A stretch of 64,000 bases of DNA from Lingula anatina (GCA_051362555.1 CM120640.1:64272788-64336787), one strand, 5' to 3'. Shown: positions 264 to 49,298, counted from the first letter of the stretch. Translations and numbers: made by a program. Notes: generated from the sequence alone by a model not told the origin.

Positions 264-3200
264 GACCTATGGTATGGTACCAGAAGTTCGAGTACGCCAT
301 CGCTCATTGGTTACAGAAGAGTGCGGAACATGTTCTTGGATGCGTTCTGTGCAGTCCTGGCTGCTTTAGTTTGTTTCGTGGGTCTGCGTTGTATGAGGTG
401 AAGGATATTTACATGCAAAAATCTGAAGAAGCTCTACATTGTCTTCAGCACGATCAAGGTATGATTCGTGAAGTTTTTTATATAAAAAAGTTAGTCGTTC
501 TACCTGACTCAAGTTAAGATTTCAAATTTATTGATTGTATTTGGGGAAGTCATAGTAGTAACATCCGTACTATACGTAACAAAAGAATTTCATTTTTTTC
601 TATTGTTATGTTACGTCATTTGAACAATGGAAAACCTATAGCGAACAATGGGGAATGTTTACAAAATAAACAAACAATTTTTTAAGTAAACAAACAAGAC
701 TCCCTATTTTTGTTTACGTTTTACAATGGTAACGGATGACGTCACAGAACGGGCCTGGGCATGTCGGGGTAATGTTTACGTTTTGTCATAGCGACGGATG
801 ACGTCAAGCGCAATTCTTTTGTTAGGCGTGTTGCATGTTTAGGCGTGCAATTTGAAGGCTATATATGTTGGAATGGTCAAATCAAACTCCAATTCACTGA
901 CCTAAGTTGTACGTTCGAACATCAAAATGTCGCAGTTCTTCAAACTTGGTGAAGATAGTCTGTTGTCGATATGCAGAAGCAAACAGGGGGTCCAGTTGGT
1001 CGTCTTCAGCGATTTGAAAACGTTGAACAAGATCCGGATGCCTCGAGAAGCATGGGAAGATTTTAAAAACACCCTGCCTTCCGTCCAAACTGCTATGTCT
1101 ACCGATACTGAAATAGATGATCAGCTGGGGGAAAACTATAATGTCCGTGTGCTGTACGACATTGGTAAGGAGGAATCTGTGATGAAGCTAGCCTACGCAC
1201 CAGTAAGTGCGTCATATCATAGAAGTAGAGAAAATGGAATGCCAACTTCAAATCTCGCAGGCCGAGCTTGTGACCCCGAGAGTTGGGCGAGAGTTGGGGA
1301 GTTTCACTTCCGGTTTCCATGCCGCTGCATTCAACTCACGCTCTACATGTTTCAATAACTACTATTCATAGCGACTAGAGCTAGTTTTTACGATAATGTG
1401 ATTTGCTATGGCGTAAACGGGAGTCTGGACATTCTAACTGCAGTTTTTATGGTGTGAAAACGGAATCATTAAAACCCAAACCGCTTTATTTGGTGCGTGT
1501 GACAGAGTGTATTACCGAAGTCGAAGATACACGGAATATAATTTAGCAATGTAAGTAATAACTTTTGTATTTTAATACAATATTGTGTTTTTTAAGCGTA
1601 AATTTAAGGAGTGAGAGGCTCATTCATGATATGATCTGTCCTTGAATACAATGGTCGTCTGACGCCGATTGTTTTCCGTTTATCCCTCAAGTGTCCATGT
1701 ACGGTCTTCGAGAAATCTGTGAACTAAATGTCGTTATCCAAGCTGTTAATAAAAGCACAGAATATTTATACATATAAATATTACATATTTAGTTGTCCCC
1801 TTTTCATTTTATGCATTTGTACAAGCAAAATACGAACATGTTTAATAAGAAAAAATGGAAATATCAAAGTCATACTTGGAGTTGTGCCATACCACCAGAG
1901 GATCATTGCAACACTAAACTAGATCAGTTATAGCTGGTTATTACTCCTGGAGATATAGCTTCAACATATAATTAAGATATACCTGACTATGTAGGACTAA
2001 TAATAATAAAAATTTATTAGAAATGTAAATTTTTATTCTGTTCTTTTCAAGGGTGTCAAGAAGGAGTTTCTGTTGTGTTATTCTATGCAGTGCCTCTTCA
2101 CAGAAGTGCAAGGGTCTTTCTTTCCACAGCTTGCCTAAGGTAAAATTGAAGCAACACAAAATAATAATCAAGCAAACCATTTTATTATTATCTCTTTTGC
2201 ACCTTTTCACAGTTGAATAACTTACTTCTTTCACAATAATTATATATAAAACGACAATTTATTAAATCTCATAATGTTCAATATTTTACACCTTCATATG
2301 CCAGCTTTTGATTCCACAAAGAAACTCCCATTTCTAAGGCGAGTACAAGAATTAAGGGGGTACATGTATCTTTTCATATCCACAGGAGTGTCTGAGGTTT
2401 CAGACAAATGGAGAAGTCAGCTGATCCACTGCATCAACAGATGTGACAGCTACTTCAATCCTGAGAAAGTCAAGATCTGTTCAAGTTATTTTGAAGCACT
2501 GTTTCATTAAATGTATGTGTACATTCAGGCTGTATAATTGGGGGATGAATATTATCTCATGAAAGTTTATTGAACTCGATTGAAATGAATTAACATCCCT
2601 TTCACCTCCTTATTACAACTTAAATTCAACATTGCTGTTTGCTTACCAAATGAGGACTTATGTCTCGGTTTCAAAGCTTTATTTTTTACATCAGACATTT
2701 AGCAGTGCACACATGTATGGTGAAACTGATTGTAGTTACATACAAATTGAGACTATCCTTACTTTAAAATAGAAATCTATAAATTAAGAAATGTGCATAA
2801 TAAGGGCAGAATTTGTACATTTAGCATGTTATGTAGAACTAAAATGGCAGTCTGGAATAACAGAATTAGAGCATTGGAAAAATGTATCTGTATAGGAAAT
2901 TTTTTCCTAAATTTTTTTCATTTCCATCAACATAGGCTGCATTTGTAGTGATAGATGCAAGTCTGCCTTGTGACTTAGCAGCCTGCAATGTCTGCTTCTG
3001 GCTGTGTACTTTTATCTCCGAGTTGACTCAGTTTTTCCTTGTTATCACTTCCCCTTCATCTATGTTTCAGTTTGCTGACTACAAAAACCACCAATCATTA
3101 TAGTGTGTGATGTCTACCTCTGTCCGTTTGATGGAATCGACAACATTTTCTGCACTAGTAGGGCTGATGAAATGTGCATCCAGGACTTAACTGAAGATCT

Positions 3201-6200
3201 CAACTGCCAACCAGACTGCTATAATGTCTTGTATGCTGGTTGTAGCAGTGAAGATAGCTGACTGGGATGCCTCTCTGTTCAGCCTGGAGACCTTGGACTT
3301 CTTTACCAAACAGGGAGATATATATTGTCCCAAAAGGTAGCAGAAACCTGAAACTAAATTAGAACTGTATGCTAGTGATGCACGTTTTTTAAAAGTACTA
3401 ATGGCAGAGTACAACTAATTATGTCTGACTCCAGATTTTGACATATCCAAGAATATTGCTGTTTGAGAAATCCATTTCAATACGACATCTTTATTTTTAA
3501 CTATGGCTATGTAAAACATTGGCTTTTAAATGTATACTGACAGTCAATAAAATCATAGCATTTATTTATCAAATAATATTTTAAGTTCCTTTGGTACATT
3601 AAGAAAATGACAGTTTTCATGTGAAATATGACACATTATTCAGTCACACATTTCACTCTTTTATGACCAAAAGAGAGTTGGAATCGATTCTCATTAAAAA
3701 AAGGACAAGAAAGTTTTCTGATGCACTTTCACTGTCTGTCACCATATATTAAAGAATAATCCATAGTATAACATGAACAAGAGCTGAGAAAAAAATCGAG
3801 TATGCAGGCAAGAAAAAGTTACCATTATAATAAACTATGCAGGCAAGGAAAAGTTACCATTATTAAAAACAGGTTGAAATACTATTGTGATTAAGTTCAA
3901 CCCAATATTGCATTTACACTTTAAAATAAATTAATTGCACCAATAGTATTCTATGGGTCAGATGTATGAGGCTTCAAACTGTGTGAACAGGTGCTGATAT
4001 TATTTAAGGAAAATTTAAGGTGTAAAATCAAGCACTTCCAAATTAGCTATCTTAGGTGATGGCATCAGATAACCCATGGTTTGCAGCTAAGAGTAGAAAA
4101 AAAATTAATAATAATAATAATAAATAAATAAAATTTAAAAAATAATAAAATAAAAAAAATGAAATAAACAGAGGAGAAAATAACAAACTATAAAATGCTT
4201 TTAAAGATAGACGAGGCATGATGTATTACATGGAAAACAAGTAAAAACATTTTTATATAGTTTTGAAAGTTCGTGGTATAATTAAGGCACAGGAAATAAT
4301 TTATTTTTTGGATTTCTTGAACATTAGACTGAAATATTACCATGTTCAAGAGTGTATTAAACAATTGCAAAATATCTCTAAACTGAAATCATTGTATTTT
4401 CTAAATGTTTCAGCTGAAGATGCTTTATGTATTTATATCTGATTTCTCTAAATTAAACTGTTCTTATCATATACTGATGATTGATCAAAGTAGACAAGAA
4501 AACATTCCATAGAAATATAAAAATTTTATATGCAGGTCAAGAGTAAAATTCATTTGCTATTATTGTTATTATGTATGCAGTAACAGCTGTTATTGCTACT
4601 ATAACTGATACATATTTGGAACTTTGTAATTTTGATAAAAGCCTTGAAATACTGAAATAAATATATTCTTTAACAATGTACCTTTTGAAGTTTCCTTTTG
4701 CATATTTATAGCTGCTGTATGTCAACAAAATGCTGGATGCAGCTTTTCCAGGGATTGCTCCACTAATTGTGAGATTTCAGTCACCTGAAGTAGTAAATTT
4801 ACAAAAGCACTGTCAACAAATTATTTTTGTATTTGTATCATGTTTCATTATTAATGTAAATGCATAATATCTAACGAAAAGGAATGTACTGTACCAATTT
4901 CCATGTAACTATAAAATGTTTCATCATATAAAAATGTTCTCAAACAAAAAAAAAAAAAAAAATATTCAGAAAGATGGTTATTTTTATTTATTGCAACATA
5001 CTAGGGTGGTGCTACTGGTTGCGTGGTGCTCTGTACGGCGAGTTGCAGCATACTGAATCTCTCTTCAAAATCATCCTATAAACAGAAAATTTACTTAAAA
5101 TTTTGGAAAAAATAACTTACAACAAATACAAAATTTTAATGATAATGAATGTGAGTAGGATTTAACTTAATGAGGTGATTTAATATCGGTAGAAAAAATT
5201 ATTGGGTCGCCTTTTCCTTGGCAGGAAAATTGCTAGCAGCCTTGTATTTAGTTGTAAACAAAAGCATTAAATAGCAAATTCCCTAGTTAAGGGACAGAAT
5301 TTTATTCCGACTTTTTTCAAGTATGATGTGCAGTCAAACTACAGTTCACGGCTAGTACGGACTAATATTCCGTTGCTGTACAGATATATCATTACTTGAT
5401 CACGACAGGGAAAGTAAAACTCTGCCGGCTGTCCACGTGCTTTGTGTGAGATCGCTCGATTATCGTCGATTTTATCCACATGCTGCAATCCAGCTTCGTT
5501 TAATCAAGCTAAGAGACAGACTTACCTCCAATAATGTCAACTTCGAGGCCATTATTAATCAAATTGAACCAAAAATCTGTCAAAATGACGCTCAATTGTC
5601 TTAGCACGCCTGCTCCCCATTCACATGTAGTGCAACAAAAGTTGACCGGAAGTAAAACTACCCAACTCTCGCCCAACTCTCGTGGTCACAAGCTCATAAC
5701 ACAGAGGGCAATACAAATCTCGCGGGAGTTGGCATTCCATTTTCTCTACTTCTATGGTCATATGAAGCAATGTACGATGTACAATTTGACAAACGCACAT
5801 TGGAGACGTTGCTGACCAAAATGCCTGAAATCAATGCAGCGTTGGGTGAAATCCCACCGACAACAGTCAGCGAGGAGCCGGAAGAAAGTGATGAAAGAAT
5901 GTTTGGGGCCGAAAACGATGTAGAAGCAGACGTAGTATTAATACGTCTCATTTACGTGAAGTTGATCGTGCAGGAAATAGAGGCCATGCGTTGCAGGTAC
6001 TGTACTGGGTGTATAGCCGCGCACGGTTCCCAAAAGCATCACATGGATGGGTGTATGGCCGACTGGTCAGTTTCGGTACATGTGTACTTCACCAGGGCAA
6101 AAGCTGCTGTAAGTCATGAGGTAATACTGAAGGCCTACAAGTTAATGAAGAAAAAACTGAGACAACAAGAAAATCCATACATACTTTCCGTCATCATGAC

Positions 6201-9200
6201 TGCATCGTTGCTGGAAGATTTTCGGAAAGACGTGGAGGAACCGAGCCCCTGATACCGTCCTCGCTCGTATGGTCTACGATGTGTGCAAGATTGTATATGG
6301 CGAACATTTGTATAAGACGATAAAAAATCAGAATAAACTTTGAATTGAACAGAAAAAGACGCCGTATAATCTGTGTAGAATTAACCAAGTTTGTATGTAC
6401 ACTAGTAAGAAGTGTGCGATGAAAGAAGACATTTGATTGGTTGATTATGACATCATATCTAAAAATAGATTTATATGTGGAACGTTACTTTGATGTGATG
6501 AAGACAATTTGATAGTAAATAGTTGATAACAAACATTTCATTGATTAAAATAATATGTGATTCGATTGGTTGAAAAAATGTTATTTGTTGTTAGCTGTAA
6601 CGTGATTGGTTAGAAAAAATGTAATACCTTTTAAGAAGCAACATGATTGGTTGAAATAAACACACAGCTTACCTGAAAAATTACAAAAATGTGTTTGCGA
6701 TCATTTTTCTTTATACTGAGTAGACAGAATGGATGATGATCATCCGGAAACCGATTCCGAGTTGGGGGGTGTGCTATATGGACCGGTCATGCCATACGCA
6801 AAAGAAGAAGACCGAATTTTGAGTTTTCTGAATTGGCCGGGCAAACTACTTATCAACCCAATCCCTTTAGCCATTAGTGGATTTTACCGAGACCCACGAG
6901 CGTCTAGACACGATGCTGTGGTTCGTTGTTTTTACTGCGATTTGTATCTAAAGAATTGGGACCCGCTGAGAGATGCCCCAGATGTCGAACACGAACGACA
7001 CTCTCCTCAGTGCACGATGAGTACGGTTGGAAAAAGAATAAATCAACGATTTAATGTACCACTTACACCTAAAAAGCGATTTCAAATGGTTAGGCTTTTT
7101 GTGGTAGATGACACACTGCCCGTTGTACATACCGCCAGTACAGTGATGTCGCTACTAAATACCCATTACGATGAAACTGATGGGAACTATAAATAGAGAT
7201 AGGATAAAGAAAGAAATCATTTTGCTTGTTGGAATTGATCCATAATTGTATGAGAAAATGCCGCGTAAGAAAAAAACCAAGAAAGGGCAGAACAAAACAG
7301 ATGCATATCTGCATAGTTTGTATACCAACCCGTCAAACCCTGTAAGCTTTGGTGGCATGTTAAAACTGTATAATGCCGCACGAAAAGATGGTAAGAAAAT
7401 CAGTCGTCAGCAAATCAAAGATTTTCTAGCCGCCCAAGATGTGTATACATTATATGCACCGGTTAGGAAACAATTCAGTACAAATCGCGTCATGGTGAAT
7501 TATATTGATGATCAATGGCAGGGTGATCTGGCAGACCTCAGTAAAATAGCAAAATACAATAAAGGAATGAAATTCTTGTTAACCGTGATTGATATATTTT
7601 CAAAATACGCATGGGCAGTTCCAATCAAATCAAAATCAGCGGACAATGTATTAGATGCGTTGAAAGGCATTGTTTCCGAAGGCAGAAAGCCACTGGTACT
7701 TCAAACTGATGCAGGGACAGAATTTACAAATAGAAAATTTCAAGCGTACCTCAAGAGTCAAGGCATAGCTTTTTTCACAACAAAATCGGAAAGAAAAAGC
7801 TCTGTGGTTGAGCGTTTTAACAGAAGCATAAAGACCCGTTTGTACAGATATTTCACAGCAAACAGTACGTTAACGTATGTGACAGTCCTAAACGACTTGA
7901 TGACAGGATACAACCATGCAAAACATCGAAGCATAAAGATGGCCCCAATCGATGTGAATCCACGAAATGCAAACATTGTGTGGAAAAACTTGTATGGAAA
8001 AGTAAAAATAGGGAAGTCGGGGTTTAAATTTCAAGTAGGAGATACTGTAAGATTAAGCAAAACACGCACCCCTTTTGCGAAAGGATACGAACAGGGATGG
8101 ACACAGGAAATATTTACAATATCAGAAAGATTAAACAGAACACCTCCTGTGTATAAGGTTAAAGATTACAATGGAGAGCAAATCGAAGGTGTCTTGTACG
8201 AACCAGAAATGATTAAAGTTATTAAAACTGACGACGTGTATCGTATCGAGAAAATTTTAAAGACCCGTGGAAAGGGGAAAACTAGGCAGCTTTTTGTAAA
8301 ATGGGTAGGTTATGATGATCGTTTCAATACTTGGGTAGATTCGAAGGATGTACAAAAAACATAAATGTAACCGGTACCAGACAAAACACCTCATTTGAAA
8401 GGATGGCGTCGTCTTTTCATGTTATCTTACCGTCAAACAGCAGCTTTAAGTATTTCCCTAACAACAGATCTGAGACATTCCAAACAAAACTGTCATCGTC
8501 ACTTAATCTAGAAGGGGATTTTGAAGTCGCATTGGTCGAACTACAGTACCCATATTCGTGGAATAATATTCAGAACGGTGTCTTGACATATTACGACGGG
8601 GTAAAAACAAATACGTTAAACATTACTGCAGGGTATTATCCGACAGTTGGCGATCTAATAACTGCAATTCACGATCAGTTAACAGCTATTGGAAAAACAA
8701 ACATAACGTTGGGTTATAACATTATCAGTAGACGAGTTACAGTTCACTTGAAATCGGGGGCCTACATCGATGTTGCGGGAGACATGGCGACAATGCTAGG
8801 GTTTAAACCGAATGTCAGAGTTAATGCGGATACCATAGCCCCTTACCCTCCAAACATGACGTTAGGGTTCAATTCCCTCTACGTGTATACAGATATTATA
8901 CAAAATCAGATGGTAGGGGACGCTTCGGCAAATTTACTGAGGATTGTCATATTAATGGCGTTTACGGACAAGTGGTCACAAAAACATTTGACAATCCCAT
9001 TTACATCCCTCTAAATCGTCGTCATATTGACACAATTCGAATAGATATAAGTCGTGACACGGGTGAACTTGTGCAGTTTGATAGCGGGAAGGCTATAGCG
9101 ACACTTCATTTTCGCAGAAAGAGTTTATTATAAAAAATGGATCCTGTATACGTAGCGTTAGTAAAAAGATACGAAGCACAGGTGGGCGGAGGGTCCATTC

Positions 9201-12200
9201 ATAAATTTAGAGGTACAAGGGTACAATCACGAATGCAAAGAGGCAATGGTAGGTTATTTCAACCTAGACACGCTGAAATATTGCATGTACATAGACAGAA
9301 CAACCCGAAACGCACAGAACAACCCGCGGTAAAGAAGAAACGTAAAAGAAGTCGTACCCCGAAGTCAAAACTTTATGTTAATGGTGACGTCATAAGGAAA
9401 ACGTTAAACGCCATGACTATAAAAAAGAACAACACACCTAAAGCATCCAGAAGAGTAAAAGGTAGACGACCAAAACAGTCACGTTCATTCAAGGCACGAG
9501 AAACGAATTTTTAGACATGAATAACACTGAAAATGATCCCATCGTCAGAACTGAACTGGATATATTTTCGAATATACGCGATCATATGCAGACCGATCTG
9601 TTATCGAGCTATTTTGAAGAAGTGAGACCTCTCACTGCGGTTGCAGATGTGAGCCCCGTGATAGAATTTGTCATTAAAGGAACACCCGACGAATATATCG
9701 ATACGACGCAAATCAACCTATACGTTGAAGGTCAAATTGTTAAAGCAGATGGAACTGACATCGATGCAGGACAAAACACGTCAGTTGTGAATAACACGCT
9801 ACACTCCCTATTTACAGCGGTTGACGTAGAGTTGAATGACCATTTAATAACTGTGGGACAGAATACATATGCCTACCGCGCATACTTGGAAAATTTATTG
9901 TATTATGGGAAAAATGCTAAAGAATCGCTTTTAACGTCGGAAATGTATTACCGAGATACCGATGGAATGATGGATGACGTTGATGTAGACGGAGACCCAG
10001 GGAATGAAGGATTTAAGGCCCGTAATTCTTGGTTTCAAAGGAGCAGGAGGGTTGAAATGTATGGACCGTTAAAAATTGACTTAGCCACTCAAAACAAGCT
10101 TCTTCTGAATCAAGTGGACGTACGAATCAAGTTGCGAAGGACGTCGCATGCATTTTGCCTTATGTCGGACACGGGTGAACAAGAGCAATTTCTGATCAAA
10201 AACATATCCCTTTTTGTAAGGAGAGTCAAAGTATCTGATCGGTTGAAACTGGCTCATGAGAACATATTAGCCAAGCACGTAGCATGTTATCCCATGACTA
10301 GAAGGGAAGTCAAAGTTATCAATTTACCCAATGGTGTAAGAACGGCTCATATTTTGGACGCATGCCTAAACGTATTCTTTTGGCTTTGTTGGAAGATGAT
10401 GCTTTTTCGGGAGATTATACTAAGAATCCGTTTAATTTCAAACACAACGATTTAAGGCAACTTCGATTAATGGTGGCGGGGGAACAAATACCATTCAAAC
10501 CTTACAATTTTGATTTTAGTGTTCAAGGGGGGTTAAACTACTTAAGGGCGTATTATGATCTTTTGTCAGCAGTTGGAGCGTCAGACGGAGAGCACAGCAT
10601 CGATATTGATAGAACTCAATACCTAAATGGATATGTTTTATTCGCTCACGATCTTACCCCTGATCAAACCTTTGACAATTATATAACTCCAACAAAGCAG
10701 GGTTCGCTTAACATTGATCTGGAGTTTGGACAACAGATTAACAATATCGTGTTGCTTGTCAGGGCTGAATTTGATTCAGTTATCAAAATTGACCAACGTA
10801 GAAGCGTTTTTGTAGAATATTAAATATGAATACGAAGCAAATAGAATGCATTCTTCAGACTGATCCGGTTACGAGAACATGTTTCCAAGGGGTGTTTGCA
10901 TCAGACGCGTTGCCCAAAAAGATATGTACTTATCCAGCATGCCTCGTGGCTAATACGGATCCTCACGATAAACCGGGCGTGCACTGGGTTGCTTTTTACT
11001 TTGATGAACAGGGACACTGAGAGTTCTTTGACTCTTTTGCGAAATCACCTTATTATTACAACGCAGCTTTTAAACGTTTTTTAGACGAAAACTCTTTATC
11101 TGGGTGGAATTGTAACACTAGGACATTACAGAGCCTGTATACCAAAGTGTGTGGACAATACTGTATATATTACTTGATGAATAGATCTCGTGGAAAAAAA
11201 TTAGAACAGATACTTAGTAAATTCACCAGCGACAAACAATTTAATGATATATTTGTGTATGATTATGTTAATGCACATTGCAACATACCCTACTGTGTAA
11301 ACGCGTGTTTTCAAGTTTGTAGATCAAAGAAGTCACTAGGAATATTGTATTAAACACATTTATTCGAGTAATAATAAAAATACAGCTGTGCAAATATGTT
11401 TTATGTTATTATTTTATTTCAATATATGTTGAATAAAGATAGTTTAGATTTTACTACATTTCCCGAATCCTTCTGACTTGGCCTGGGAGCTGGTTTAGTT
11501 TTTGCTACATGTCCCGAGCCCATCTGAGTTGAACTGGAAGAAGTGTCCAACGACATAATCTGGTTGCGCCGCTTTACGTTTGAGATGTTATTCAGCGGTA
11601 CATTAAGACGTTTCAAACCCTTTAAAAATACAGTAAGCCCTGGCGGTTCGTAATTCCTACGGGGTACGTACAGATCGTTAAACAAATCTACTACATTGCT
11701 TCCTTCGTACACTCTACCATTGTATTTCAACTCCCCCTGATCATTTTACGACAGCACATTAGGTTGGTTAGACATGTATCTCAAAATTACGTTAGCTTTG
11801 CGACGCACACGCTGTGGTATTGCATCTAATATCTCGGCTTTAAGATGTAATACAGATCCAGCCTTTGACTTGACGGTGGGGGTTGCGGTTGCGTCAGCGG
11901 TGTCAACTCCAAGTTGTGCTTCTAATGGTTGTGACGAATTGTGCACAACAACTGCAACCGGTTCGCGTTTCCTCGCTTTACTCAGATATTGACTATGAAG
12001 ATCGTTGTAGATACTCATTTTTTCATCGAATGGTACATCGGTCCTTTGCAAAGTTTTCTTCATTTCATTTTCTAAACGTAGTGTTTCTTCGACAAAGGGT
12101 GAATAATTAGCGCTTACTCTCTGTTTCAAAGCATTCAGTTCGTTCTCGTTGATTAAGACCATTTTATTGAAGCCTGCCATTTCTTGTTATCGGTTTTAGA

Positions 12201-15200
12201 ATTGCCTTAACTGCACTAGGATTCCGTATCAAAATTATTTTTTTCCGCTGAATGGACACTTGTTTGGAAGCCAGCTGAACGATGACGCGTTTAACCCTCC
12301 GTAATGCCGATTTTTCTGTCGCAGTCAGGGTAATATTTGTATTGTATAATAGATTAGATGCGTAGTTACAGATAATTCTAGCGAGATCGTAGTGTGAATT
12401 CTTAACAACGGCAGTTATCAATTTCTTGTCGGCTATGGAAAGCAAATTGACATGAGCTTTGAATAACTTTTCTGTCTCAACTTTCATGATACACCGAAGC
12501 GATGAAAATATGTTCAGTCATTTACATGTGTATGCGTAATGCGTTTCTCCGGGAAAGATATTGGTGCGCAGACGAATGTTTTCCGCAGTGGCTTGTTTGA
12601 GATCTATTAGTAAATAACCATGGGCACTGGCTGTGGCGTCTTTATAAACATTTATAAACGTTTTAAGATCGTTTGGATACATTTGCATTCCTAGCGTTTT
12701 GACTTGCAGGGAGTCACGGGGGTTTTTAAAAAGAACCAAATAATGACAGTTCAACGATATGGTTCGCACGTGCTTTTCTTTGGGAAATAAATTTTGTACA
12801 ATCAATACTACACTAATGTTACGATGGTGAGAGCCTTTTGTGAATAGGTCACGGATCCGGGCATCGTCGCTACATTCGGCAAAAAGATCATCGAGTACTA
12901 TTAGATTATTTAATTGAGAATCAAAAAAGGTGGCGTCGGTTAAGTCGGTCGGAATACCTTTAAAGAATGTTACTGTGTCAGGGTGTTCCCTCTGAATTTC
13001 ATCAAACAACTGCTGCCAAATATCGTAACAATAAATTATCTTTTGTGGCGACGGTGAAATCATTGTATCGGCATTTGATAATAGCCTTTTAATCCACACT
13101 GTTTTTCCTGATCCAGTGGGCCCTGCTAAAAGAGCAGTGAAAGGGTGTTTTAGATGTGTATCGTACATGTCCAAAAATGTAATTGGCATTTATCGGCTTG
13201 ACGGGTTTACTTTATAACTTTTATCACATGAGAGTGGTGATGAGTTATGGGATGATTCAAATGTAACAGACGATCAGCTAGTAAATCATGTAGATCAGTT
13301 CGAAGGTGAACTCGGGATGGGGGTAGATTATAGAAGGTTTTATAATCTGCGACGAGTCAATGAACGGCGCATGAAAAAATTTTCTACTGTAAACACGGAC
13401 TATCAGCTCACATTCTCCCATTTAGAAAATAGAAGTTTAAATTCTATGATGCCCTTCCTTCGTGAGCTTTTCCAAAACATATTTGACGACTTAGTGCAGA
13501 ACATGCTTCCTCATGATTTGGTCAGAATTGTCTTGCAATCTGACACGTTAGAGTATCCCATATCAATAGCGTTCACGAGGGTATCTGAATTTACAGTGGA
13601 TCTCTTTTTGGACGAATTGATAAGAGTATTACAGTCTCACGAGGAGTTAAGACTTGACGCATCTATTATTTTAACTGTGTGTCATGTCAGTATGCCACGC
13701 CCTGGTGGAACAAGATTAAAACGTGGGTCTATGGGTATGCAGAGCTTTCTCCACGCAAAGCGTTCAGTCATCCAAATACATAACGGGGGGGGGGGGGGGG
13801 GGGGGGGAGATCAGTTGTGCTTAGCGCGTGCATTGGTTGTAGCTATGGCCAAAGCAGATTATGACCCCGAATATGCAACAATCGTTAATAAGCGCTGTCG
13901 TGAACAATTAGAAAGAGCCCAAGACTTGCATACAAGTGCTGGAGTACCGTTAGGTCCTTGTGGTGTCCCTGAAATTAAACAGTTTCAGTCATATTTGAGT
14001 AATTATCAAATATCTGTGTTTTCTGGAGATCACTTTATGAGTTTAATTCATAAAGGGCCTTCAGCTTTGAAGGAACTGTTTTTATTTTACCATAAGGGGC
14101 ATTATGATGTCATAACTTCGATAACAGGTTTCATGGGTAGGGCCTACTATTGTACGGAATGCAATATAGGTTTTGATCACATGGGTGACCATTCGTGCGA
14201 AAAATATTGCGAGAGGTGTAAAAGGGATTCGTCATGCAAGTTTGAAACATGGCGTCATTGCGATCAGTGTAGCAGAAATTTCCTCTCTGACAGCTGTTTT
14301 AGAAATCATACACTTGTACCCGAACAAGGTAGATGGTCAACCTGCCGACGATTTACTCTTTGTAAAAAGTGCACTAAATTTGTCGATCATAAAAGGGAGA
14401 AAAAACATGTGTGTTACACTTACAAGTGCAAGTCATGTAATAAGTACGTCAAAGACGGTCACTTATGTTACATGCAAATTGATAGAGATGACCGTGATGT
14501 GGATGATGACGATTTACTTATGTATATCGATGAGAATCCTGCTGCCAATTTCATTGGTAAGTTCAAACCTGGTTCAAAACGCCCTTTCATATTTTTTGAT
14601 TTTGAAGCGCAGCCATCGCATATGTTCATACCCCTTATCTAGTGGTTGCTCACAGGGTATGTCATCACTGTCTAAATTTAGACGTAACCCCCACTAGTAC
14701 ATGTGAGCTATGTGGCAAAAATGAACATGTGTTTAAGGGGCCCTCGTGTGTTGATGAATTTTGCAAATGGGTATTTGAAGATCAGAGTTTTGAACGTGCA
14801 CAAGGTAAAAGGAAAAGGAAAGGAAAAAACAAAGGAGGTCGCAGTAAACGAATGAATCCTGGAGCATCGTCATGTTTTGATGGTGATGAGTATGAATGTG
14901 AGAATAACGAGGAGGATATGATCATACATAATGGGGCTATATTGTTGGCATACAACATGTCTGGTTATGATGGTTTTTTCCTCTTAAAATGGCTCAAAGA
15001 CCAATGTATCGTTCCCGAGGTGATATTACGAGGCGCCAAGGTGCTTTCTATTAAGGTGGGCGATATAACCGTTCTTGATTCTTACAGCTTCCTCCCCATG
15101 GCACTCAACAAACTTCCCGCTGCATTTGGTCTAGATGAATCCCTGTCAAAGGGCTACTTCCCCCACTTCTTTAATACCCCTGAAAACCAAGACTATAGGG

Positions 15201-18200
15201 GTAAAATGCCCGCCACAAATTTTTATGGCTCTGACTCAATGTCTGTCGGTGCGAGAGAAAAATTTTTGGCATGGTACAATGATCAGGTTAGTCAAAACTA
15301 TATATTTGATTTCCAAAAGGAAATACTCATATACTGCCGCATGGACGTCACCATTCTTCGGCAAGCATGTCTCCGTTTCAGGAAATTAATGCTTGATATA
15401 ACAGTTGCGAATGGTGTGGAAATTGATGTGGTTTACAGATCTATCACTATAGCCAGCGCATGCAATGTTGTGTTTAGATCTTTATTTCTTATGCAAAACA
15501 CGATCGGCATTATTCCAGCACAGGGGTATAAGCCGAAAAACAAAACGTCCGTGAAAGCAGCTAAATGGTTGCAGTATAGGGCGGAGCGTGACAATGTCTT
15601 TATACAGCATGCTCATAATCAGGGAGAAAAGAAAATAGGAAAGTTTGTCGTTGATGGTTGGGCGTCAACAACTAACACTGCCTACGAGTATCAGGGGTGT
15701 TTTTGGCATGGGTGTCCAAAATGTTACAACAGTTACAATATCAACAATGTCAGTTTGATAACAATGGGTGAGTTGCTAGAAAGGACGGTGGATAAGAAGC
15801 ATGCGCTTCAATCTTTAGGTTTCAACTACATAGAGGTATGGGAGTGTGAGTTTGACAGGGTCATACGGGAGGATGCTGGCGTGAAGGAAATAGTGGATAG
15901 CGTGAACGTTGTCGATTGTATTGATCCTCGTGAAGCCTTTTACGGGGGCAGGACGAACGCAGTCAAGCTTTTTTTGTCAGGCAGATCAGGGACAGAAAAT
16001 ACGTTACATTGACGTGTGTAGTCTATATCCCTATGTCAACAAATACAAACCATACCCCCTCTGTCACCCCACCATCATAACCGAAAACTTTGGTCCTCTT
16101 AGCAAGTATGAAGGTTTAGTCAAATGTACTATTCTTCCTCCTCGCGGCCTTTATCATCCTGTCCTTCCCTATAGATCACAAGGGAAACTAACATTTCCTC
16201 TTTGTCGCACATGCGCTGACACACTGCAGCAGACGCGGTGTGAGCATAGTGACGAAGAGCGTTGTATGACAGGTACATGGGTTACGGTCGAGTTAAAAAA
16301 GGCCGTTTCCAAGGGCTATGTGATTAAACAAATGCACGAGGTCTGGCATTATGATCATGTTAGCGAATACAACCCAATCACAAAAACGGGGGGCCTTTTC
16401 TCTGACTATATCAATACATTTCTCAAGCTCAAACAAGAGGCCAGCGGCTACCCACCAGAGTGCACGACACCACAGCTAAAAAGAGACTACATTGCTTCCT
16501 ACTTCACCAAAGAGGGCATTCGACTAGACCCTAGACAAATTAAGAAGAACCCAGGTCTTAGAGCTTTGTCTAAACTGATGCTTAACAGTTTTTGGGGTAC
16601 GTATAAACAGAGTTAGCATTCATTTATTACATACACTATGTCGGCGGTTCACGCAAGATTCCAATATTTGTATTTACCACTCACTGTAAATATCAGTAAT
16701 AACAAAGTACGTACATTTGCATATTACATCTGTCCTTGATGCGTTATTATGTTTACACATTGTTTATTCACATCATACAATATTACAGTACTTCTCATTC
16801 GTGCATTTTCACTATCCTTACTATCATAGTTATGTTATTATTTTTTATTTTTGTTATTTCAGGCAAGTTCGGTCAACGAATGAACATGACACAGTCCGAA
16901 TACGTCACCGAGGTGGACGAGTACTTTGCGCTGCTGTTGAACAAATCCATCGATGTCACCAACGTGATGTTTTTAACCGATGATATGGTGGAGGTACACT
17001 ACAAACACCAATCTGAGTTTAATGAATGCTCCGATAAGACCAACGTCGTCATAGCCGCGTACACCACCGCCCACGCTCGTATGGTTCTTTACAGCGCCAT
17101 AGAGGTCCTGGATCGAAACGTTCTTTACTTTGACACGGACTCAATAATCTTCCTGGACGATGGCAGTGCACAAACCAACGCCTACCTGAATACCATCATG
17201 GGCAGCTACCTTGGCGACTTCACCGGCGAGTTGGATGAGGGGGACCACATCACCACCTTTGTGTCGGGCGGCCCTAAAAACTACGCATACGTTACCGCAA
17301 AGGGAAAGACAATTTGTAAAGTGAGGGGTATTTCACTGAATTATGAAACCTCCCAAATAGTGAACTATGAGACTTTGCGTAACATGGTACACGGTATAGG
17401 TCCGAAAGAGGTGTCAACCACTACACACCATAAAATTGTGAGAGACACTCTGAATAAAGAACTGCTCTCTAAAAGGGAGGATAAAGTTTACCGGGTTGTG
17501 TACACTAAACGTGTCATTCAGCAAGACTCATTTGATACACTACCATACGGCTATTAAATTTCATAAACTGCTGAGTAGTGTTGTTTATATAATTATCATC
17601 TTTCATTTTGTTGTACATACATTGTTTTGGTGTTTTAATCTGTATATACAACTGTTAATTCACTATAATCAATTTGTAATGCAATTATGTATCATAATTA
17701 TTATCTTTCAGTAAAATAGACATTTATGTCCATTGTTTTAATGTGTACATACAACTGTTAAATCCCTATAATCAACTTCTTACAATGCTGGAAGATTTTA
17801 ATAAAATCATGGTTTTATTTACAACTATACTTGTTTGTCACTATATTATGCTCTTTATCCTTAGTAATTCTTAAAAATCTCCTACTGTTTTAATATCAAG
17901 CCCAGGCCCGTTCTGTGACGTCATCCGTTACCATAGTGAAACGTAAACATTACCCCGACATGCCCAGGCCCATTCTGTGACGTCATCCGTTACCATAGTA
18001 AAACGTAAACAAAAATAGGGAGTCTTGTTTGTTTACTTAAAAAATTGTTTGTTTATTTTGTAAACATCCTCCATTGTTCGCTATAGGTTTTCCATTGTTC
18101 AAATGACGTAACATAACAATAGAAAAAAATGAAATTCTTTTGTTACGTATAGTACGGATGTTACTACTAGTCATGTATTACAAGACGTACGTATTAAGTT

Positions 18201-21200
18201 TCATCATTGTGAATGATAAAAAAGATCATCTAAACCTGACGTAAATATCTGTTGCAATCTGGAAAAACATTTCTCTTGATTATATGTAAAATTACTAATG
18301 TGAATAAGTGCTGTTTTAATGCACGTTTCTTACTTTTAAATTTCTTCTAGGGGAAGACCGTTGGTTATGTACCTTGTTACTTCAGTATGGATGGAAAACT
18401 AAATACTGTGCGGCCTCTGAGGCGTGGACCTATGCGCCAGAAACATTCACCGAATTCTACAACCAACGGCGCCGATGGGGTGTGTCAACCATCGCCAACT
18501 TGTACGACTTGATATCTAGCGGCTGGGAAACGTCAAATGTGAACGACAACATCTCGTTTGGATACATCCTGTACCAAGCTCTTTTACTTGCGTCAACATT
18601 GCTTGCTCCTGCCACAGTCATCTTGGCAATATCGACTTCCATCACAACATTATTGATTCCAAGTCTTGTCAATGACATTGGAGGTGCCATCGTAACTAAC
18701 GGAATTCTCATTCTTCCCATTGCAGTTTTTGTTTGGGTTTGCTGTACTCAGAGACAGAGCATTCAGATACATGTTGCTGCTATTCTTAGTGGGATTTATG
18801 CACTTTTCATGTTGGCAGCTCTGGTGGGGTTACTTGTAGAAACAATCACAAATATTGGTAGTTTGTCGTCGCTCGTATTTTTGTCTCTTGTATCCATCAT
18901 TGTTGTAACAGCCGTTTTGCACCCAAAGGAGGTCTACGTTTTGGCATTTGGGTTTATTTATTTTATTGCTGTCCCATCCATGTTTGTATTTTTGACTATT
19001 TACTCTACTTGTAATCTGCATGACATATCTTGGGGGACAAGAGAAGCAGCTAAGAAAAATGACAACATTTTAAATTCAAGCACGGATGACAAGAAAACAT
19101 TTGACTGCCAGTCAATTGTCAAATGTTTGACATGCTACAAGCGAGCTGACGACACCAAAACTGAAGAGGAGTGGCAACACGACAATGAGAAGACAGCAAA
19201 CGACGAAAGGAATCAGACAAGAAATGATGAAAAGCATGCAGAAACAGGGGAAGCAAATGTTCAACGGCCTACTCATAAAAATAAAAAAGGAAAAAACAAG
19301 GAAAAGGGGAAAGGGGGGAAAAATAAAAGGACTCTACAAGAAGCAAACCGAAATAACAACAGTAAACCAATGAATAATCCGGTAGGCGTGGAGCAGAGTG
19401 GAAATCATAAAGAAAATGACGGAAAGCATATGCAGTCAGGGGGAACAATTGTTCAAAATGGGCAAGCCAGGAATCCCCTCATTGTCGGTTTAACGGAAAA
19501 CGAGAAAAAGAATGTTCAATGTACAAGACAGCATGATGGTGTTGATGAGTTAAGCTTAAAAAACAGAGAGAGTTGCGCTGTCGAATTGGCTAACTCTATT
19601 GATGGGATAAAAGTAGCGGGGCACGACATTGAGATGACAACAAATGACTATAGGAATCAGGCATCGGAAAGCGGAAATCAAGGAAAAAATGAAAAGCATA
19701 CAGAGACAGGAGAAGTAAATTTTAAACAGCCTACTCAACCAATAACCCTGGAGGAAGTACATAAAAATGGGGGAGGAAATAAAAAGCCTCCACCAGATAG
19801 CTTATATAACAAAAGTAAACCAAGGGTAGCATGGGAAGCCAAAAAAGCCGGATATCATACAGAAAATGAGGAAACAATTGTTCAAGACCAATGGGCTAAC
19901 TCTGTTGATGGGATAGAGTGGCACGACATTGCAAAGACAACAAATGACAAAAGGAATCAGACAGAGCAAAGCAGAAATCAAGGAAAAAATATATATCATA
20001 AAGAAAATGATGGAAAGCATTCTAGTAAACGTAAGATATTCAGATATTCTCAATTTTCACATTGATTTTTCATATTTATCATTATCAAACTGTCCTCATT
20101 TTCAAAATACCCTCCTCCTTTCCCACCAATATGCGTCGATAGTCAGCAGCAAACTGGATATTGACTATTTATGTTTGCAATAGAAATTAAGCAAATCACG
20201 TATAAGCCAGCTGCTACATGTATATTCAAGGAGAGGGGGTTTGCTACACCACTGTAATAATAAGACACTGCTCCAGCGATAATATTCTACTAAAATTCTT
20301 TGCAGTTTATACACCAAAAACGCAAAAACGAACACCTTTGGAACAAAAACTACAAAATTGTATACCGATGTAAACCATCGTGGATTAAATGAATTCTTGA
20401 ATATCTTTGATTAGAGAACGAATTGATGTCAACACAAAATGGTAGGAGTCGTTCTGAAACCGAGGTGGAAGAAGAAACAGAGAGTCAGAATCTATATAGT
20501 TTGGAAAAAACTATAAATTCGACAACTGTAGGCAAAAGCAAAACTCCCGAAATGCAAAATGATGACGAAGAGAAAACCAGACAAAAGCGGAAAATCAGAC
20601 AAAGGTGGAAGACATTTTGCACCATTAAAGGACAAAAGCGGAAGCTTATTTGTAAGTAGACTTTAGTTTTTAGATTGTAATATACAATGACCATTTTCCT
20701 GTATTTCAAAACATTTGACCCGATGAGGCACATTGAACAAGAGAAGAAGAAATGAAGGGTAATTACTTTTCAATTTACTTTATGCTATTTAATTGATAAA
20801 CGAAATCAGTCACAAGCTTTGCAACAGCACTCAGAAAGGAACAAATCTTCAACAAGTCTATAGAAGGACCTAGGTTACATTTGCAATTACATTTGGTCAA
20901 CTTACGATGAAATCGTATCCGAATTTTTCTGGTCGATCGTACACCCTGCGTACGGGTTAATTGCTGTCCGATACATTGTCGTTGCCGTGCGTTTTAGAAG
21001 CCACAGCGTCATTATTGGGACTGCACGTGCGCCACATTGCAAATGTACATACATTTCTTCTCCCTCTGAGTACATGTACGTGTGCAAACGTACACCAGCG
21101 GTTGCTTGCATACTTGAGACGACATGACTGTGAGCGAGCCTCTTTCGTTGTGTGCGTATGGGCATTTTTTTTTTTCTCATACCGTTTGCGCTATTCGCAA

Positions 21201-28833: not shown

Positions 28834-31800
28834 TCAAGAGGCTTTAGTTGTACATGTTCCAACATCAGACTCCTTATTGGTTTTCTTTGGTAATGTTGCA
28901 CCCAGGTTAATAGCTACTGAAGATCTGAAAAGACAAGAATAAAAGTTATTTGTAATGTATAAAAATGTTAAAGCATATTCAAAGTAAAACAATGCTGAAT
29001 ACTTGTATATCATAAAATACTGCCCTAGTTGTTAAAACTTTTTTCAAAAATCTCAAAGGCACTTCCTTGCAGAGATGGTGAAAATCAATAAAGCAAGTTC
29101 TTATCTATCTGCCCCTGGCATCTAGTCTTCCAAAAACAATCACAAAATAATAACAATAATAATAACAATGATATATGAAAATATGGCTCTGCAATCTTCA
29201 AATAAAATGATATCAGTTAAATACACAACATAAAAGCTACCAACCTATTATGTGTTAAATGACTCCTGACTAAATGTCCTGCAGCAAGTGCAGACATCAG
29301 AGACAGCTCTCCTGCCAGAACAGTAGCACACACCACTCTGGCCAACAGGGATGCATTGCAGCCTGCCACACCATTACTACCATGTACACCAAGCATCTGA
29401 AATACAGAAGCGTACTTAAGAGTAAATCCAACTGTAAGGATTGGGACACAATGTATGAAAAAGAGCAAAGAGGTTAATGAAACACATAAAGCTGTCTATG
29501 CAAAGAAAATAGGAATACCTACTGTTTCTAACCCCTCCCCCTTTTTTTCTACGTGTATAAAAGGCCATACCTGTAAGCAAGCAGCCTGTGGTGGTAACAC
29601 AGTCCCACCTCCCACAGTGCCCACCTCTATGGAAGGCATACTACAGCTGATATAGAGATCTTCACTGTGAGGTCCCACGCCCTCCATCAGAGTTATACAA
29701 TTAGCACTGGTCACCACCTGGGCTGGATCTTGACCAGTGGCTATAAAAATAGCAGTCACTATGTTGGCTGCATGAGCGTTGAAACCACCAATACTGCCTG
29801 CCATGGCTGAACCAATTAGATTCTTACTCAAGTTCACCTCTACCAGTGCCTGTGTGGTAGTTTTGAGAACATTGCGCACTGTGCTGGCAGGAATTGTGGC
29901 CTCACATACAACTGATTTGCCTCGACCTTCAATCCTGAAATAAATTTTTGGGAAGTTCATTCCATGGATGTAACTAGAGGATCAGAGAGGCGATACCGCC
30001 TCCAAATATTGTACCACCAGCTGGAGCAAACGCATTCGTATAGACCCCCACATACACAAAATAAGGGACACAGCCACCAGTTTTGTGCTTGACAAGCTGT
30101 AAAAATGCAATCAACAAGAATTTTTAAACTATTGCAAAAAATATATATGGTACAATCAAATTTAAGTTCTTCGTAAGGTAGGTCAAGGGTCAATTTCAAG
30201 GTCACAGTAAATTGCCAGTATATGACTTCCTATTCAAGTTCAAGAGTAACTATGGACCTATCTCTGTCAAGTTTGAAGTTAAAAGAGAAAGAAATTAGCA
30301 GAGTTCAGTTCATGGTAAAAAGTAGGTCAAAGGTCAATTTCAAGGTCACACTTAGATTGCCAGTATAGGACTTCCTATTCAACTTCAATAGTAACTATTG
30401 ACCTATCTCAGCCAGTTTTGGAGATAAAAGGGAAGCAAAATTTGTAAAATTCAGTTCATGGTGAAAAGTAGGTCAAAGGTCAATTTCAAGGTCACACTTA
30501 GATTGCCAGTATAGGACTTCCTATTCAACTTCAATAGTAACTATGGACCTATCTCAGCCAGTTTTGGAGATAAAAGGGAAGCAAAATTTGCAAAATTCAG
30601 TTCATGGTGAAAAGTAGGTCAAAGGTCAATTTCAAGGTCACATTTAGATTGCCAGTATATGACTTTCTATTCAAGTTCAATAGTAACTACGGACCTATCT
30701 CAGCCAGTTTTGGAGATAAAAGGGAAGCAAATTTTGCAAAGTTCAGTTTATGGTGAAAAGTAGGTCAAAGGTCAATTTTAAGGTCACATTTAGATTGCCA
30801 GTAAATGACTTCCTATTCAAGTTCAATAGTAACTACGGACCTATCTCAGCCAGTTTTGGAGATAAAAGGAAAGCAAAATTTGCAAAATTCAGTTCATGGT
30901 GAAAAGTAGGTCAAAGGTCAATTTTAATGTCACACATAGATTGCCAGTATATGACTTCCTATTCAAGTTCAATAGTAACTACGGACCTATCTCTGCCAGT
31001 TTTGGAGATAAAAGGAAAGCAAAATTTGCAAAATTCAGTTCATGGTGTAAAGTAGGTCAAAGGTCAATTTTAAGGTCACATTTAGATTGCCAGTATATAA
31101 CTTCCTATTCAAGTTCAATAGTAACTATGGACCTATCTCTGCCAGTTTTGGAGATAAAAGGGAAGAAAAATTTGCAAAGTTCAGTTCATGGTGAAAAGTA
31201 GGTCAAAGGTCAATTTCAAGGTCATAGTAAGATTGCCAGTACATGACTTCCTATTCAACTTCAATAGTAACTATGGACCTATCTCTGCCAGTTTTGGAGA
31301 TATAAGGGACTAGATGTTATAATTTTGGAGTTACCATAATGTGCCTTAAATTTCGTACAGAAAAAATTAATTAAAATAAAGAAAATGTCATTTTGGTCAA
31401 AATTCTTGAAATAGGAGGTACTCTGAAGTTTCAGAAGTTCAAATTTGATGAAATAATGTCATTTTTGAACACAAGTTGTCTGCTTTGCCAAGCCTTATGT
31501 TTTATTTTTCCAGAGTTCAAAATTTATTATCCATTACCGTACTGCACATTTTGCTTTTACCACCAATATGTACTTTTTGATACAGCGTAACTCGAAAACC
31601 GTATGGAATACAAAAAAACCGAGACGACCTCCAGTGTTGGGCTTTACATGCTCTACAAAATGCAAAAAAGAATGGGTCTCTAGCATTAACGATTCCCGAA
31701 TTAGAGACAGTTTTCAGTTTCGGTATCTTATGGCCGCTACTCCCGTGAAAATGCACCGATTGACCCCAAATTCATGGAGATGAAAGATGACCTGAAGGGT

Positions 31801-46683: not shown

Positions 46684-49298
46684 ATTGTACCACCAGCGTA
46701 GGCGCTGGCGGTACTCATGGTTTTAGTCCCGACCCGTATGTTCCGCCGGCTCCGCCGGCTCCTGCGGCTCCGCCGGCTCCTGCAGCTCCGCCGGCTCCTG
46801 CGGCTCCGCCGCCAAGTCACCGTTACCGCTTCTCCTCCTAGACGGTAAGGGCCTCCATACCCATCTCTTGGATTTAGGTCACCTATAATCTCAACTCGTT
46901 CCACGTAAAATTTGGGCTTTGTCGGTATTGGGGTCTAGGTGTGGCACTCATTACAATGCACCCTTGTCCAAAAATGGCAAAATTAAATGCTAATTATCTC
47001 CCCTACGGAAGGAATTATGGGAAAAATTTCTACAGACAGCTTTCCAAAAGTCATATGTGTAGATTTCAAATATGCCCTTGGATTTGACCTTTGACCTTTA
47101 TTTCAAGGTCAAACGGGCCAAAATTTTCAAAAAAACAAAATTTTTGCCGAAAAAAATTTTTTTTGCGCTCTTATTCAGACACCACACAGACTTAACTAAT
47201 AATATTAATGGAAAGTGTTACCCTTCGGGTCATCTTTCATCTTCGTGAATTTGGGGTCAATCGGTGCATTTTCACGGGAGTAGCGGCCATAAGATATCAA
47301 AACTGAAAATTGTCTCTAATTCGGGAACCGTTAATGCTAGACACCCATTCTTTTTTGCATTTTGTAGAGCATGTAAAGCCCAACACTGGAAGTGGTCTCC
47401 GTTTTTTTGTATTCCATACGGTTTTCGAGTTACGCTTTATCAAAAAGTCATATACTGGTGGTGAAAGCAAAATGTGCGGGCTTGGCAAAGCAGACAACTT
47501 GTGGTCAAAAATGACATTATTTCATCAAATTTGAACATCTGGAACTTCAAAGCACCTCCCATTTCAAGAATTTTGACCAAAATGACCTTTTCTTTATCTT
47601 AATTAATTTTTTTCTGTAGGAAATTTATGGCACACTATGGTAACTCCAAAATTATACCATTTAGTCCCTTATATCTCCAAAACTGGCAGAGATAGGTCCA
47701 TAGTTACTATTGAAGTTGAAAAGGAAGTCATATACTGGCAATCTAAATGTGACCTTAAAATTGACCTTTGACCTACTTTTCACCATGAACTGAACTTTGT
47801 AAATTTTGCGTCCCTTTTATCTCCAAAACTGGCAGAGATAGGTCCATAGTTACTATTGAAGTTGAATAGGAAGTCATATACTGGCAATCTAAATGTGACC
47901 TTAAAATTGACCTTTGACCTACTTTTCACCATGAACTGAACTTTGCAAATTTTGTTTCCCTTTTATCTCCAAAACTGGCAGAGATAGGTCCATAGCTACT
48001 GTTGAACTTGAATAGGAAGTCATATACTGGCAATCTACATGTGACCTTAAAATTGACCTTTGACCTACTTTTCACCATGAACTGAACTTTGTAAATTTTG
48101 CGTCCCTTTTATCTCCAAAACTGGCAGAGATAGGTCCATAGTTACTATTGAAGTTGAATGGGAAGTCATATACTGGCAATCTAAATGTGACCTTGAAATT
48201 GACCTTTGACCTACTTTTCACCATGAACTAACCTTTGCAAATTTTGTTTCCCTTTTATCCCCAAAACTGGCAGAGATAGGTCCATAGTTACTATTGAACT
48301 TGAATGGGAAGTCATATACTGGCAATCTAAATGTGACCTTGAAATTGACCTTTGACCTACTTTTCACCATGAACTAACCTTTGCAAATTTTGCTGCCCTT
48401 TTATCTCCAAAACTGGCAGAGATAGGTCCATAGTTACTATTGAACTTGAATAGGAAGTCATATACTGGCAATCCAAATGTGACCTTGAAATTGACCTTTG
48501 ACCTACTTTTCACCATGAACTGAACTTTGCAAATTTTGCTGCCCTTTTATCTCCAAATCTGGCAGAGATAGGTCCATAGTTACTATTGAACGTTGATAGG
48601 AAGTCATACACTGGCAATCTAAATGTGACCTTGAAATTGACCTTTGACCTACTTTTCACCATGAACTGATCTTTGCAAATTTTGCTTCCCTTTTATCTCC
48701 AAAACTGGCAGAGATAGGTCCATAGTTACTATTGAAGTTGAATAGGAAGTCATATACTGGCAATCTTAACGTGACCTTGAAATTGTCCTTTGACCTTCTT
48801 TTCACCATGAACTGAACTTTGCAAATTTTGCTTCCCTTTTATCTCCCAAACTGGCAGAGATAGGTCCAAAGTTACTATTGAAGTTGAATAGGAAGTCATA
48901 TACTAGCAATCTAAATGTGACCTTAAAATTGACCTTTGACCTACTTTTCACCATGAACTGAACTCTGCTAATTTCTTTCTCTTTTAACTCCTAACCTGGC
49001 AGAGATAGGTCCATTGTTACTATTGAACTTGAATAGGAAGTCATATACTGGCAATCTTACTGTGAAATTGACCTTTGACCTACCTTTTGATGAACTTAAC
49101 TTTGATTGTACCATTTTAAGTTATATATATATTTTTTGCATATTTTGAAAATTCTTGTTGATTGCATTTTTACAGCTTGTCAAGCAAAAGACTGGTGGCT
49201 GTGTCCCTTATTTTGTGTATGTGGGGGTCTATACAAATGCGCTTGCTCCAGCTGGTGGTACAATATTCGGAGGCGGTATCGCCTCTCTGATCCTCTAG
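46684..49298 (+). mobile_element. Non-autonomous Helentron (HINE), family 1, with ~10 x 146-bp repeats
   Basis: Inverted close copy of 29974-32291 with the same sub-TIRs, hairpins and CTAG|TT end. Confidence 0.85.

Follow-up and report, generated by a model that had tools for sequence, protein, structure and literature searches.

The closest described relatives of the element reported here are the Polintons or Mavericks of animals (adintoviruses, polintoviruses), which carry a DNA polymerase of the pfam03175 type (pPolB). A pPolB group that contains Vsr domains is known from molluscs and marine nematodes, according to passages of three papers (PMC8502044, PMC10748475, PMC8097293), and homing-endonuclease domains are reported within polinton pPolBs in parts of two (PMC11161782, PMC10748475). 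Barreat and Katzourakis found no introns in intact vertebrate Mavericks, as stated in the available portion of their paper (PMC8097293). The preliminary description of the present locus, which held that Polinton open reading frames (ORFs) are generally treated as intronless, agrees with that portrayal of the vertebrate elements (PMC8097293, same portion). Spliceosomal introns in Polintons are not mentioned in the accessible passages of the nematode, adintovirus and coral papers (PMC10748475, PMC8502044, PMC11131425), and those of PMC11296320 and of two 2026 preprints contain nothing on the subject. Within the literature searched, no earlier account of spliceosomal introns directed at motifs of animal Polinton polymerases came to light, and such an account may yet exist in print.

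Several other systems invite comparison. Spliceosomal introns also lie within Maverick-Polinton-like elements of dinoflagellates, where, in the excerpts at hand, they are introners, repeated transposon families in protists that were inserted mostly after integration (PMC11957031 / PMC12166617). Group I introns, which differ in kind from the introns described below, are recorded in cryptophyte PLVs in part of another paper (PMC12220804). In the sections of Swithers et al. that were available, inteins and group I introns prefer conserved sites and spliceosomal introns show no such preference (PMC2814812). A PRP8 intron of Bathycoccus is located at an intein codon in the extract of Monier et al. 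(PMC3749507), and Daphnia introns gained in parallel bear break-repair footprints in that of Li et al. (PMC4202315).

The DNA analysed, here termed the window, is a stretch of 64,000 nucleotides from Lingula anatina (CM120640.1:64272788-64336787). It contains a Polinton (Table 1) that shares with animal Polintons not only its size and AGTAGT ends but also the pPolB, the integrase with chromodomain and the A32-like ATPase. The features by which Polintons are recognised were found, namely long terminal inverted repeats (TIRs) with AG...CT ends, a 6-bp target-site duplication (TSD), an integrase, a packaging ATPase and a pPolB of Pfam family PF03175, one match of which is named adintovirus PolB at 48%. 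Unlike the vertebrate Mavericks, intronless in the available text (PMC8097293), the window pPolB is split by a spliceosomal intron; intronless core ORFs describe the vertebrate elements and do not define the family, and the window element departs from them. Exon 2 of its pPolB is 40-52% identical to full-length pPolBs. The Vsr-like insert is detected weakly, with phmmer E values of 0.05-0.07 against the E. coli Vsr entries 1vsr/1odg/1cw0, and two homologues are named very-short-patch-repair endonuclease by JGI.

Table 1. Features of the Polinton copy, its polymerase intron and its host site, in window positions
Feature	Position	Strand	Evidence
Whole Polinton/Maverick copy, 17.6 kb, ends AGTAGT...ACTACT	554..18168	.	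sequence
Left terminal inverted repeat, 253 nt, 96% complementary to right	554..806	.	
Right terminal inverted repeat	17916..18168	.	
Target-site duplication AGTCAT, 6 bp	left 548..553, right 18169-18174	+ (left)	
Host chitin-synthase intron containing the entire element, sense orientation	459..18350	+	flanking exons match Pfam Chitin_synth_2
Cargo gene with BIR (inhibitor-of-apoptosis) domain, immediately before integrase	6720..7196	+	Pfam BIR 6.8e-13
Retroviral-like integrase with C-terminal chromodomain, single ORF	7246..8364	+	Pfam rve 5.9e-14, Chromo 4.6e-7
Putative major capsid protein, two frames	9466..10823	+	gene order
Putative adenain-like protease, internal stop	10802..11353	+	Pfam Peptidase_C5 E 0.012, below cut-off
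A32-like packaging ATPase, single ORF	12518..13189	-	Pfam Pox_A32 1.6e-7
pPolB exon 1, three overlapping frames in window copy	13218..16596	+	Pfam DNA_pol_B_2 E 1.2e-18, 6.1e-16
Vsr-like nuclease domain within pPolB, with motif GCFWHG; assignment weak	15539..15895	+	
Predicted U2-type GT-AG spliceosomal intron, phase 1, in Gly of NSFW-G-KFG	16597..16862	+	sequence; spliced in XP_013411740.1
5' splice site GTACGT	16597..16602	+	sequence
TAG terminating the unspliced frame, ahead of remaining motif B and motif C	16614..16616	+	ORF 15906..16616
Polypyrimidine tract and CAG 3' splice site	16833..16862	+	sequence
pPolB exon 2: remainder of motif B, then motif C YFDTDS and the C-terminus	16863..17557	+	

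Two of the genes expected of Polintons, those for an adenain-like protease and a jelly-roll capsid protein, are named with less assurance. The capsid ORFs, which we take from gene order to encode the major capsid protein, have no Pfam or PDB match; their unnamed homologues are mostly 400-490 aa long (55 of 75 matches at least 400 aa, by hand count), in a search whose length window differs from that of the polymerase search and which is an unfair control. The protease is presumed to be adenain-like mainly from gene order. In the window copy the reading frame of pol is also broken near 14620 and near 15970, which the preliminary description does not mention, and several more genes of the element are disrupted. 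The contigs of greatest depth in two read runs (X1 and X3) differ from the window at each of these pol breaks, and the breaks therefore belong to the window copy or to its assembly. Judged by its sequence, the window Polinton is a decayed copy that could not make polymerase by itself. At about 14790-14930 the pPolB also has some 47 additional aa in frame, rich in Lys/Arg and then acidic, a stretch which resembles a nuclear localisation signal and is not an intron.

The host intron begins with GT at 459 and ends with AG at 18349-18350. It would measure about 270 nt with the Polinton removed, and the host pre-mRNA runs through the Polinton, whose splice and polyA signals could compete with those of the chitin-synthase gene. 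Within the element, inverted segments at 1218-1314 and 5645-5756, which form two pairs (51 nt, 94%; 30 nt, 100%), bracket about 4.4 kb of AT-rich DNA and split an ORF near the left end, an arrangement that suggests a nested insertion or an inversion. Elsewhere the host DNA of the window contains arrays (30200-31350, 47500-49070, 56400-58450; 61800-63080) of a 146-bp repeat, present in both orientations, and of a 161-bp repeat.

The segment in motif B is the only intron found in the window element. Its 266 nt in the window sequence are not a multiple of three, its GC content is 0.30 against 0.445 and 0.463 in the adjoining coding DNA, and it contains stop codons in all three frames. The upstream frame ends in KLMLNSFW plus one G and the downstream frame resumes with GC and then KFGQR, which places the interruption in phase 1 of the Gly codon. 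When all GT/GC donors 0-21 nt past the Asn codon were combined with all AG acceptors up to 2.4 kb, 16597/16862 proved to be the sole pair in the window that restores motif B. No inverted repeat of at least 20 nt was found inside 16597-16862, a single G and nothing longer is repeated across its junction, and no tRNA or Rfam family matched it. It thus has neither the inverted repeat nor the junction duplication (TIR, TSD) of an introner or inserted transposon, and, with stops in all frames and no Rfam match, it does not resemble a group I or group II intron or an intein. Its GT...AG ends, consensus-like donor, polypyrimidine tract and restoration of the frame by removal are those of U2-type introns, and its splice sites are near-consensus. 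On these features 16597-16862 is identified as a U2-type (GT-AG) spliceosomal intron in motif B of pPolB. The preliminary description had reported an AT-rich GT-AG segment with a T-rich acceptor, free of TIR or TSD, whose removal restores motif B exactly and which, unspliced, stops the frame at 16616 before motif C; its coordinates proved exact, and each of these particulars was recovered. Its further statement, that replication depends on host splicing, also stands in that a full-length polymerase would need the intron removed. Two in-frame calls made by the spliced aligner in the window pol (63 and 120 nt) were rejected for their poor splice sites, unchanged GC and open frame.

Sister copies were found in sequencing reads. 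In run X3, two contigs span the donor, covering 64-176 nt on the exon side and 140 nt on the intron side, and one of them differs from the window at 20 positions in 316 nt (94% identical) at a depth of 726 and has the intron. Of the four DNA joints listed, none bypasses the motif-B intron; contigs reveal the presence of the intron and not its absence, and a run may derive from the window's own source. The window segment is a host-type GT-AG intron common to sister copies of the same Polinton family. The closest database protein, RefSeq XP_013411740.1 (LOC106174630, Lingula anatina), matches the exon-2 part at 99% identity and crosses motif B without a break, and automated annotation therefore already splices the intron; the entry is an uncharacterised automated model, possibly of the same locus, and is not independent proof of splicing. 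Six raw-read RNA runs, covered to 6-26% each, reached a depth of about 0-6x over the two strands, too shallow to reveal a junction, and no joint attained the threshold of 3 reads. In runs X13 and X19, neither of the intron-only bins (16640-16853) has any depth on the presumed sense strand, but exons too have zero bins, and X19 had 0.74x on the opposite strand within 16640-16853; the pyrimidine tract was skipped as a repeat in these depths over the window.

Relatives were sought in metagenome contigs by a pattern confined to the sequence upstream of the junction, so that the picks were blind to intron state. At least 118 relative loci were found, near-duplicates included. Among the 118 matches listed, motif B contains a GT-AG intron in 24, is uninterrupted in 86 and is decayed without insertion in 8. 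The 24 introns are 62-158 nt long, and 23 of them are AT-richer than their flanks, the exception being one that bears a tRNA. All 24 insertions in these matches are GT-AG and pyrimidine-tailed, and the intron-like character of the window segment is therefore not due to chance. They occupy six offsets past the Asn codon, all within 10 nt: +2 (6 loci), +7 (5), +8 (3), +9 (2), +10 (7) and +12 (1), the window intron being at +10. In addition, L137 has a GC-AG intron at +10; this locus was placed in a bacterial genome bin. A motif-B call in L057 was false, the result of a 1-nt indel, and was reclassed as "other". Aligned to the 24 introns of relatives, the window intron did no better than shuffled sequences, with the marginal exception of a single score of 32, the shuffled maximum being 30. 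Conserved position with divergent sequence, the pattern that the preliminary description had proposed to look for, was seen at the seven loci with an intron at +10 among the 118 matches listed, the sequences of which are unrelated. GTAAGT is already spelled at +10 in 23 of the 86 uninterrupted loci. At least one pol intron occurs in 31 loci among the matches listed, and in 20 of the 57 loci of at least 2.5 kb.

A protein search with a piece of exon 1, limited to 109-349 aa and thereby enriched for broken ORFs, gave a similar picture. Of 120 such homologue ORFs, 73 depart from the motif directly past NS[FL]WG, with tails such as K-Y, M-Y and T-Y that are donors read through, and about 23 more end at KLxLN-R (hand count). 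Searches of viral contigs gave no close relative; 16 of 17 loci were phage polymerases, and the other, L013, was kept.

Some relatives have features of their own. The motif-B intron of L060 contains a tRNA-Tyr(GTA) gene at 1441-1515 (ARAGORN; Rfam 63.6 bits, E 1.5e-11), and 21 of the 73 homologue ORFs that run into the intron (tails P0021-P0118) translate tRNA-like words. It is thus likely that in one clade the motif-B intron contains a tRNA gene or an element derived from a tRNA. Five loci (L023, L058, L028, L077 and L137) have intron-rich pPolB genes with 4-8 introns each.

A phylogenetic tree was built with the motif-B columns excluded from 73 rows, these being the 83 of 120 that were long enough less 10 near-duplicates; the method was a quick one and gave one long-branch warning. 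Intron presence and absence require 11 changes on this tree, 7 of them forced by starred branches, and gains are indistinguishable from losses there. Close sister lineages differ in motif-B intron state. Each of the offsets +2, +7, +8 and +10 turns up in at least two parts of the tree, and the clade of the window, which is weakly supported (89), contains +7, +8 and +10 introns together.

Introns in the remainder of the polymerase were sought with a purpose-written spliced aligner in 120 loci, with two intronless queries each. Of its 96 calls, 70 passed a strict filter and 26 failed, 7 of the latter being restored as probable. The 120 loci aligned yielded 38 distinct pPolB intron sites in 32 loci, with clusters in ExoII, the GCFWHG Vsr-like motif (6 sites), motif A (3), motif B (6) and motif C (3). 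Introns in variable regions may have escaped the aligner; after alignment, 4 insertions of at least 14 aa had no call, one of them a likely missed intron. Conservation around the 38 sites averages 0.63, and nulls with the same flanking bases and phase give 0.45-0.47 (0 of 20000 draws). The bias persists with motif B removed (0.58 against 0.44-0.47, p≤1e-4) and with the sites collapsed to 18 clusters (p≤0.002). The sites are also clustered beyond conservation, with 32 pairs within 15 nt where 14.5 are expected (p=0.0016), or 17 against 7.8 without motif B (p=0.008). The next base is G at 24 of the 38 sites, and AG precedes 17. In about 3,650 aligned aa of non-pol genes from 10 intron-bearing elements, covered within the flanks fetched around the metagenome loci, no internal intron was called where 9.6 were expected, a contrast that rests mostly on L137 (p=0.045 without it); long terminal calls in these genes were set aside as end artefacts. 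Rfam matched none of the pPolB introns except for one tRNA. The sites at +2 and -189 lie in the Ser codons just past the intein sites of family-B polymerases. Unlike the dinoflagellate introners, the pPolB introns are mutually unrelated, inherited within families and concentrated in catalytic motifs. They resemble inteins and group I introns in being located in the most conserved motifs, as described in part of PMC2814812, and differ from them in being short, in having no endonuclease or self-splicing structure and in occupying several offsets instead of one homing site.

These observations are best accounted for by recurrent intron gain directed at invariant motifs of the animal Polinton DNA polymerase, a reading to which we assign a probability of roughly 0.55; the pattern itself is observed, and an attacker is proposed for it. 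Introns recur in motifs A and C, in ExoII and in the Vsr-like motif, which argues for motif-directed gain or retention and not for one conserved switch. DNA breaks or insertions would recur at conserved stretches of pPolB, the cutter plausibly being a sequence-specific nuclease, such as the Vsr/HNH domains within pPolBs, or a host defence. Repair would insert AT-rich filler, shifted slightly in its bases each time, and in a catalytic motif only those inserts that the spliceosome removes cleanly would survive. At +10 the coding word W-G-K-F is often already a perfect donor (G|GTAAGT). Such an intron would persist through DNA-to-DNA copying, imprecise loss being lethal there and the split target resisting re-cutting, and the motif-B intron would be spliced constitutively. 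A more specific proposal, tentative at this stage, is an arms race in which nucleases (Vsr/HNH domains of pPolBs, or host factors) cut rival polymerases and introns recur as resistance alleles. Against a nuclease, the Vsr match in the window is weak (E about 0.05), the nuclease, its target site and the break are all conjectural, and six intron sites lie inside the Vsr-like motif itself, which is unexpected of a homing-nuclease target. The occurrence of +7, +8 and +10 together in the window clade counts against recurrent gain, as it is what the sliding of a single intron would predict.

The clustering of sites beyond conservation (p=0.0016; 0.008 without motif B) counts against another account, in which introns are gained anywhere in a long nuclear pol at proto-splice sites (G|G, AG|G) and persist in invariant motifs, imprecise deletion being tolerated elsewhere and lethal there. 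No attacker is then necessary, and the conservation bias is accounted for, the cluster in the Vsr-like motif included. Introns might also be favoured as helping a long transcript to escape the silencing of intronless RNA; intronless mobile elements are reportedly silenced (PMC8770142), which is taken as support. The G that follows 24 of the 38 sites, the AG before 17 and the ready-made donor in 23 of the 86 uninterrupted motifs among the 118 matches listed also fit, and the same logic of retention is proposed for inteins in a passage of PMC2814812. On the other side, the bias persists with flanking bases and phase matched, the equally conserved windows GGPKNY and KVRGITL contain no introns, and none were found in the stretches covered of the integrase and ATPase, which have invariant motifs too. 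This account is possible, and we hold it tentatively. That one old intron per motif slid along the G-run (TGG GGN), with many losses, and left the six offsets as slid versions is unlikely. Offsets +7 to +12 are all in or at the G-run, the window intron, the +7 and +8 and most of the +10 rows form one weakly supported clade, and multicopy elements could perhaps complement frameshifted intermediates. But +2, +7, +8 and +10 each recur in separate tree positions, and 86 of the 118 matches listed are uninterrupted, close sisters among them (L051/L070 beside L048; L083 and L035 beside +10 rows). An element that replicates through DNA does not itself provide the reverse transcription by which an intron would be lost precisely, which counts against sliding as well.

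The third intron of the Drosophila P element is spliced in a regulated, germline-restricted manner, and the enzyme of this DNA transposon is likewise reliant on host splicing for its reading frame. From this analogy the preliminary description had proposed that regulated intron retention turns the Polinton polymerase off in some tissues or stages. A retained intron would indeed end the product before the end of motif B and before motif C, and the window element has a single intron. The comparison with relatives lends no support: three quarters of them have no intron in motif B (86 of the 118 matches listed being uninterrupted), sister lineages differ, and several have 4-8 pol introns, beyond what a switch needs. 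The position, length and sequence of the present intron are not conserved among relatives, and its splice sites are near-consensus. A switch of this kind is accordingly regarded as highly doubtful, although it may be a secondary use of the intron. There is next to no likelihood that the segment is a private insertion or an assembly error in a dead copy with GT-AG ends by chance. The window copy is decayed, with several genes broken, and no spliced read is listed from the six shallow RNA runs, as this would have it. Contigs from other runs nevertheless cross the donor into the segment, one with the 20 differences in 316 nt, seven distant loci have an intron at the same position, and all 24 motif-B insertions among the 118 matches listed have splice ends. 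The diverged sister contig and the distant loci refute a private insertion or artefact at the DNA level, the very outcome that the preliminary description had named as fatal to its case, and support the identity of the segment as a spliceosomal intron.

The type of element is itself known; what appears to be new is the recurrence of motif-directed introns across the pPolB family. It is this recurrence, with the clade of tRNA-bearing introns, that is of interest, more than the decayed copy in the window. The origin of new spliceosomal introns is an open question, and pPolB offers a single gene in which mechanisms of gain are testable, with dozens of independent sites crowded in catalytic motifs and intronless sisters available for comparison. 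If the proposed arms race is real, it would constitute a natural, repeatable, nuclease-primed birth of introns, with one clade having a tRNA-Tyr gene in the new intron. Screens based on ORFs, in which intact means intronless, would miss a sizeable share of animal Polintons or call them dead. In intron-bearing Polintons, expression of the polymerase would pass through the host nucleus and spliceosome.
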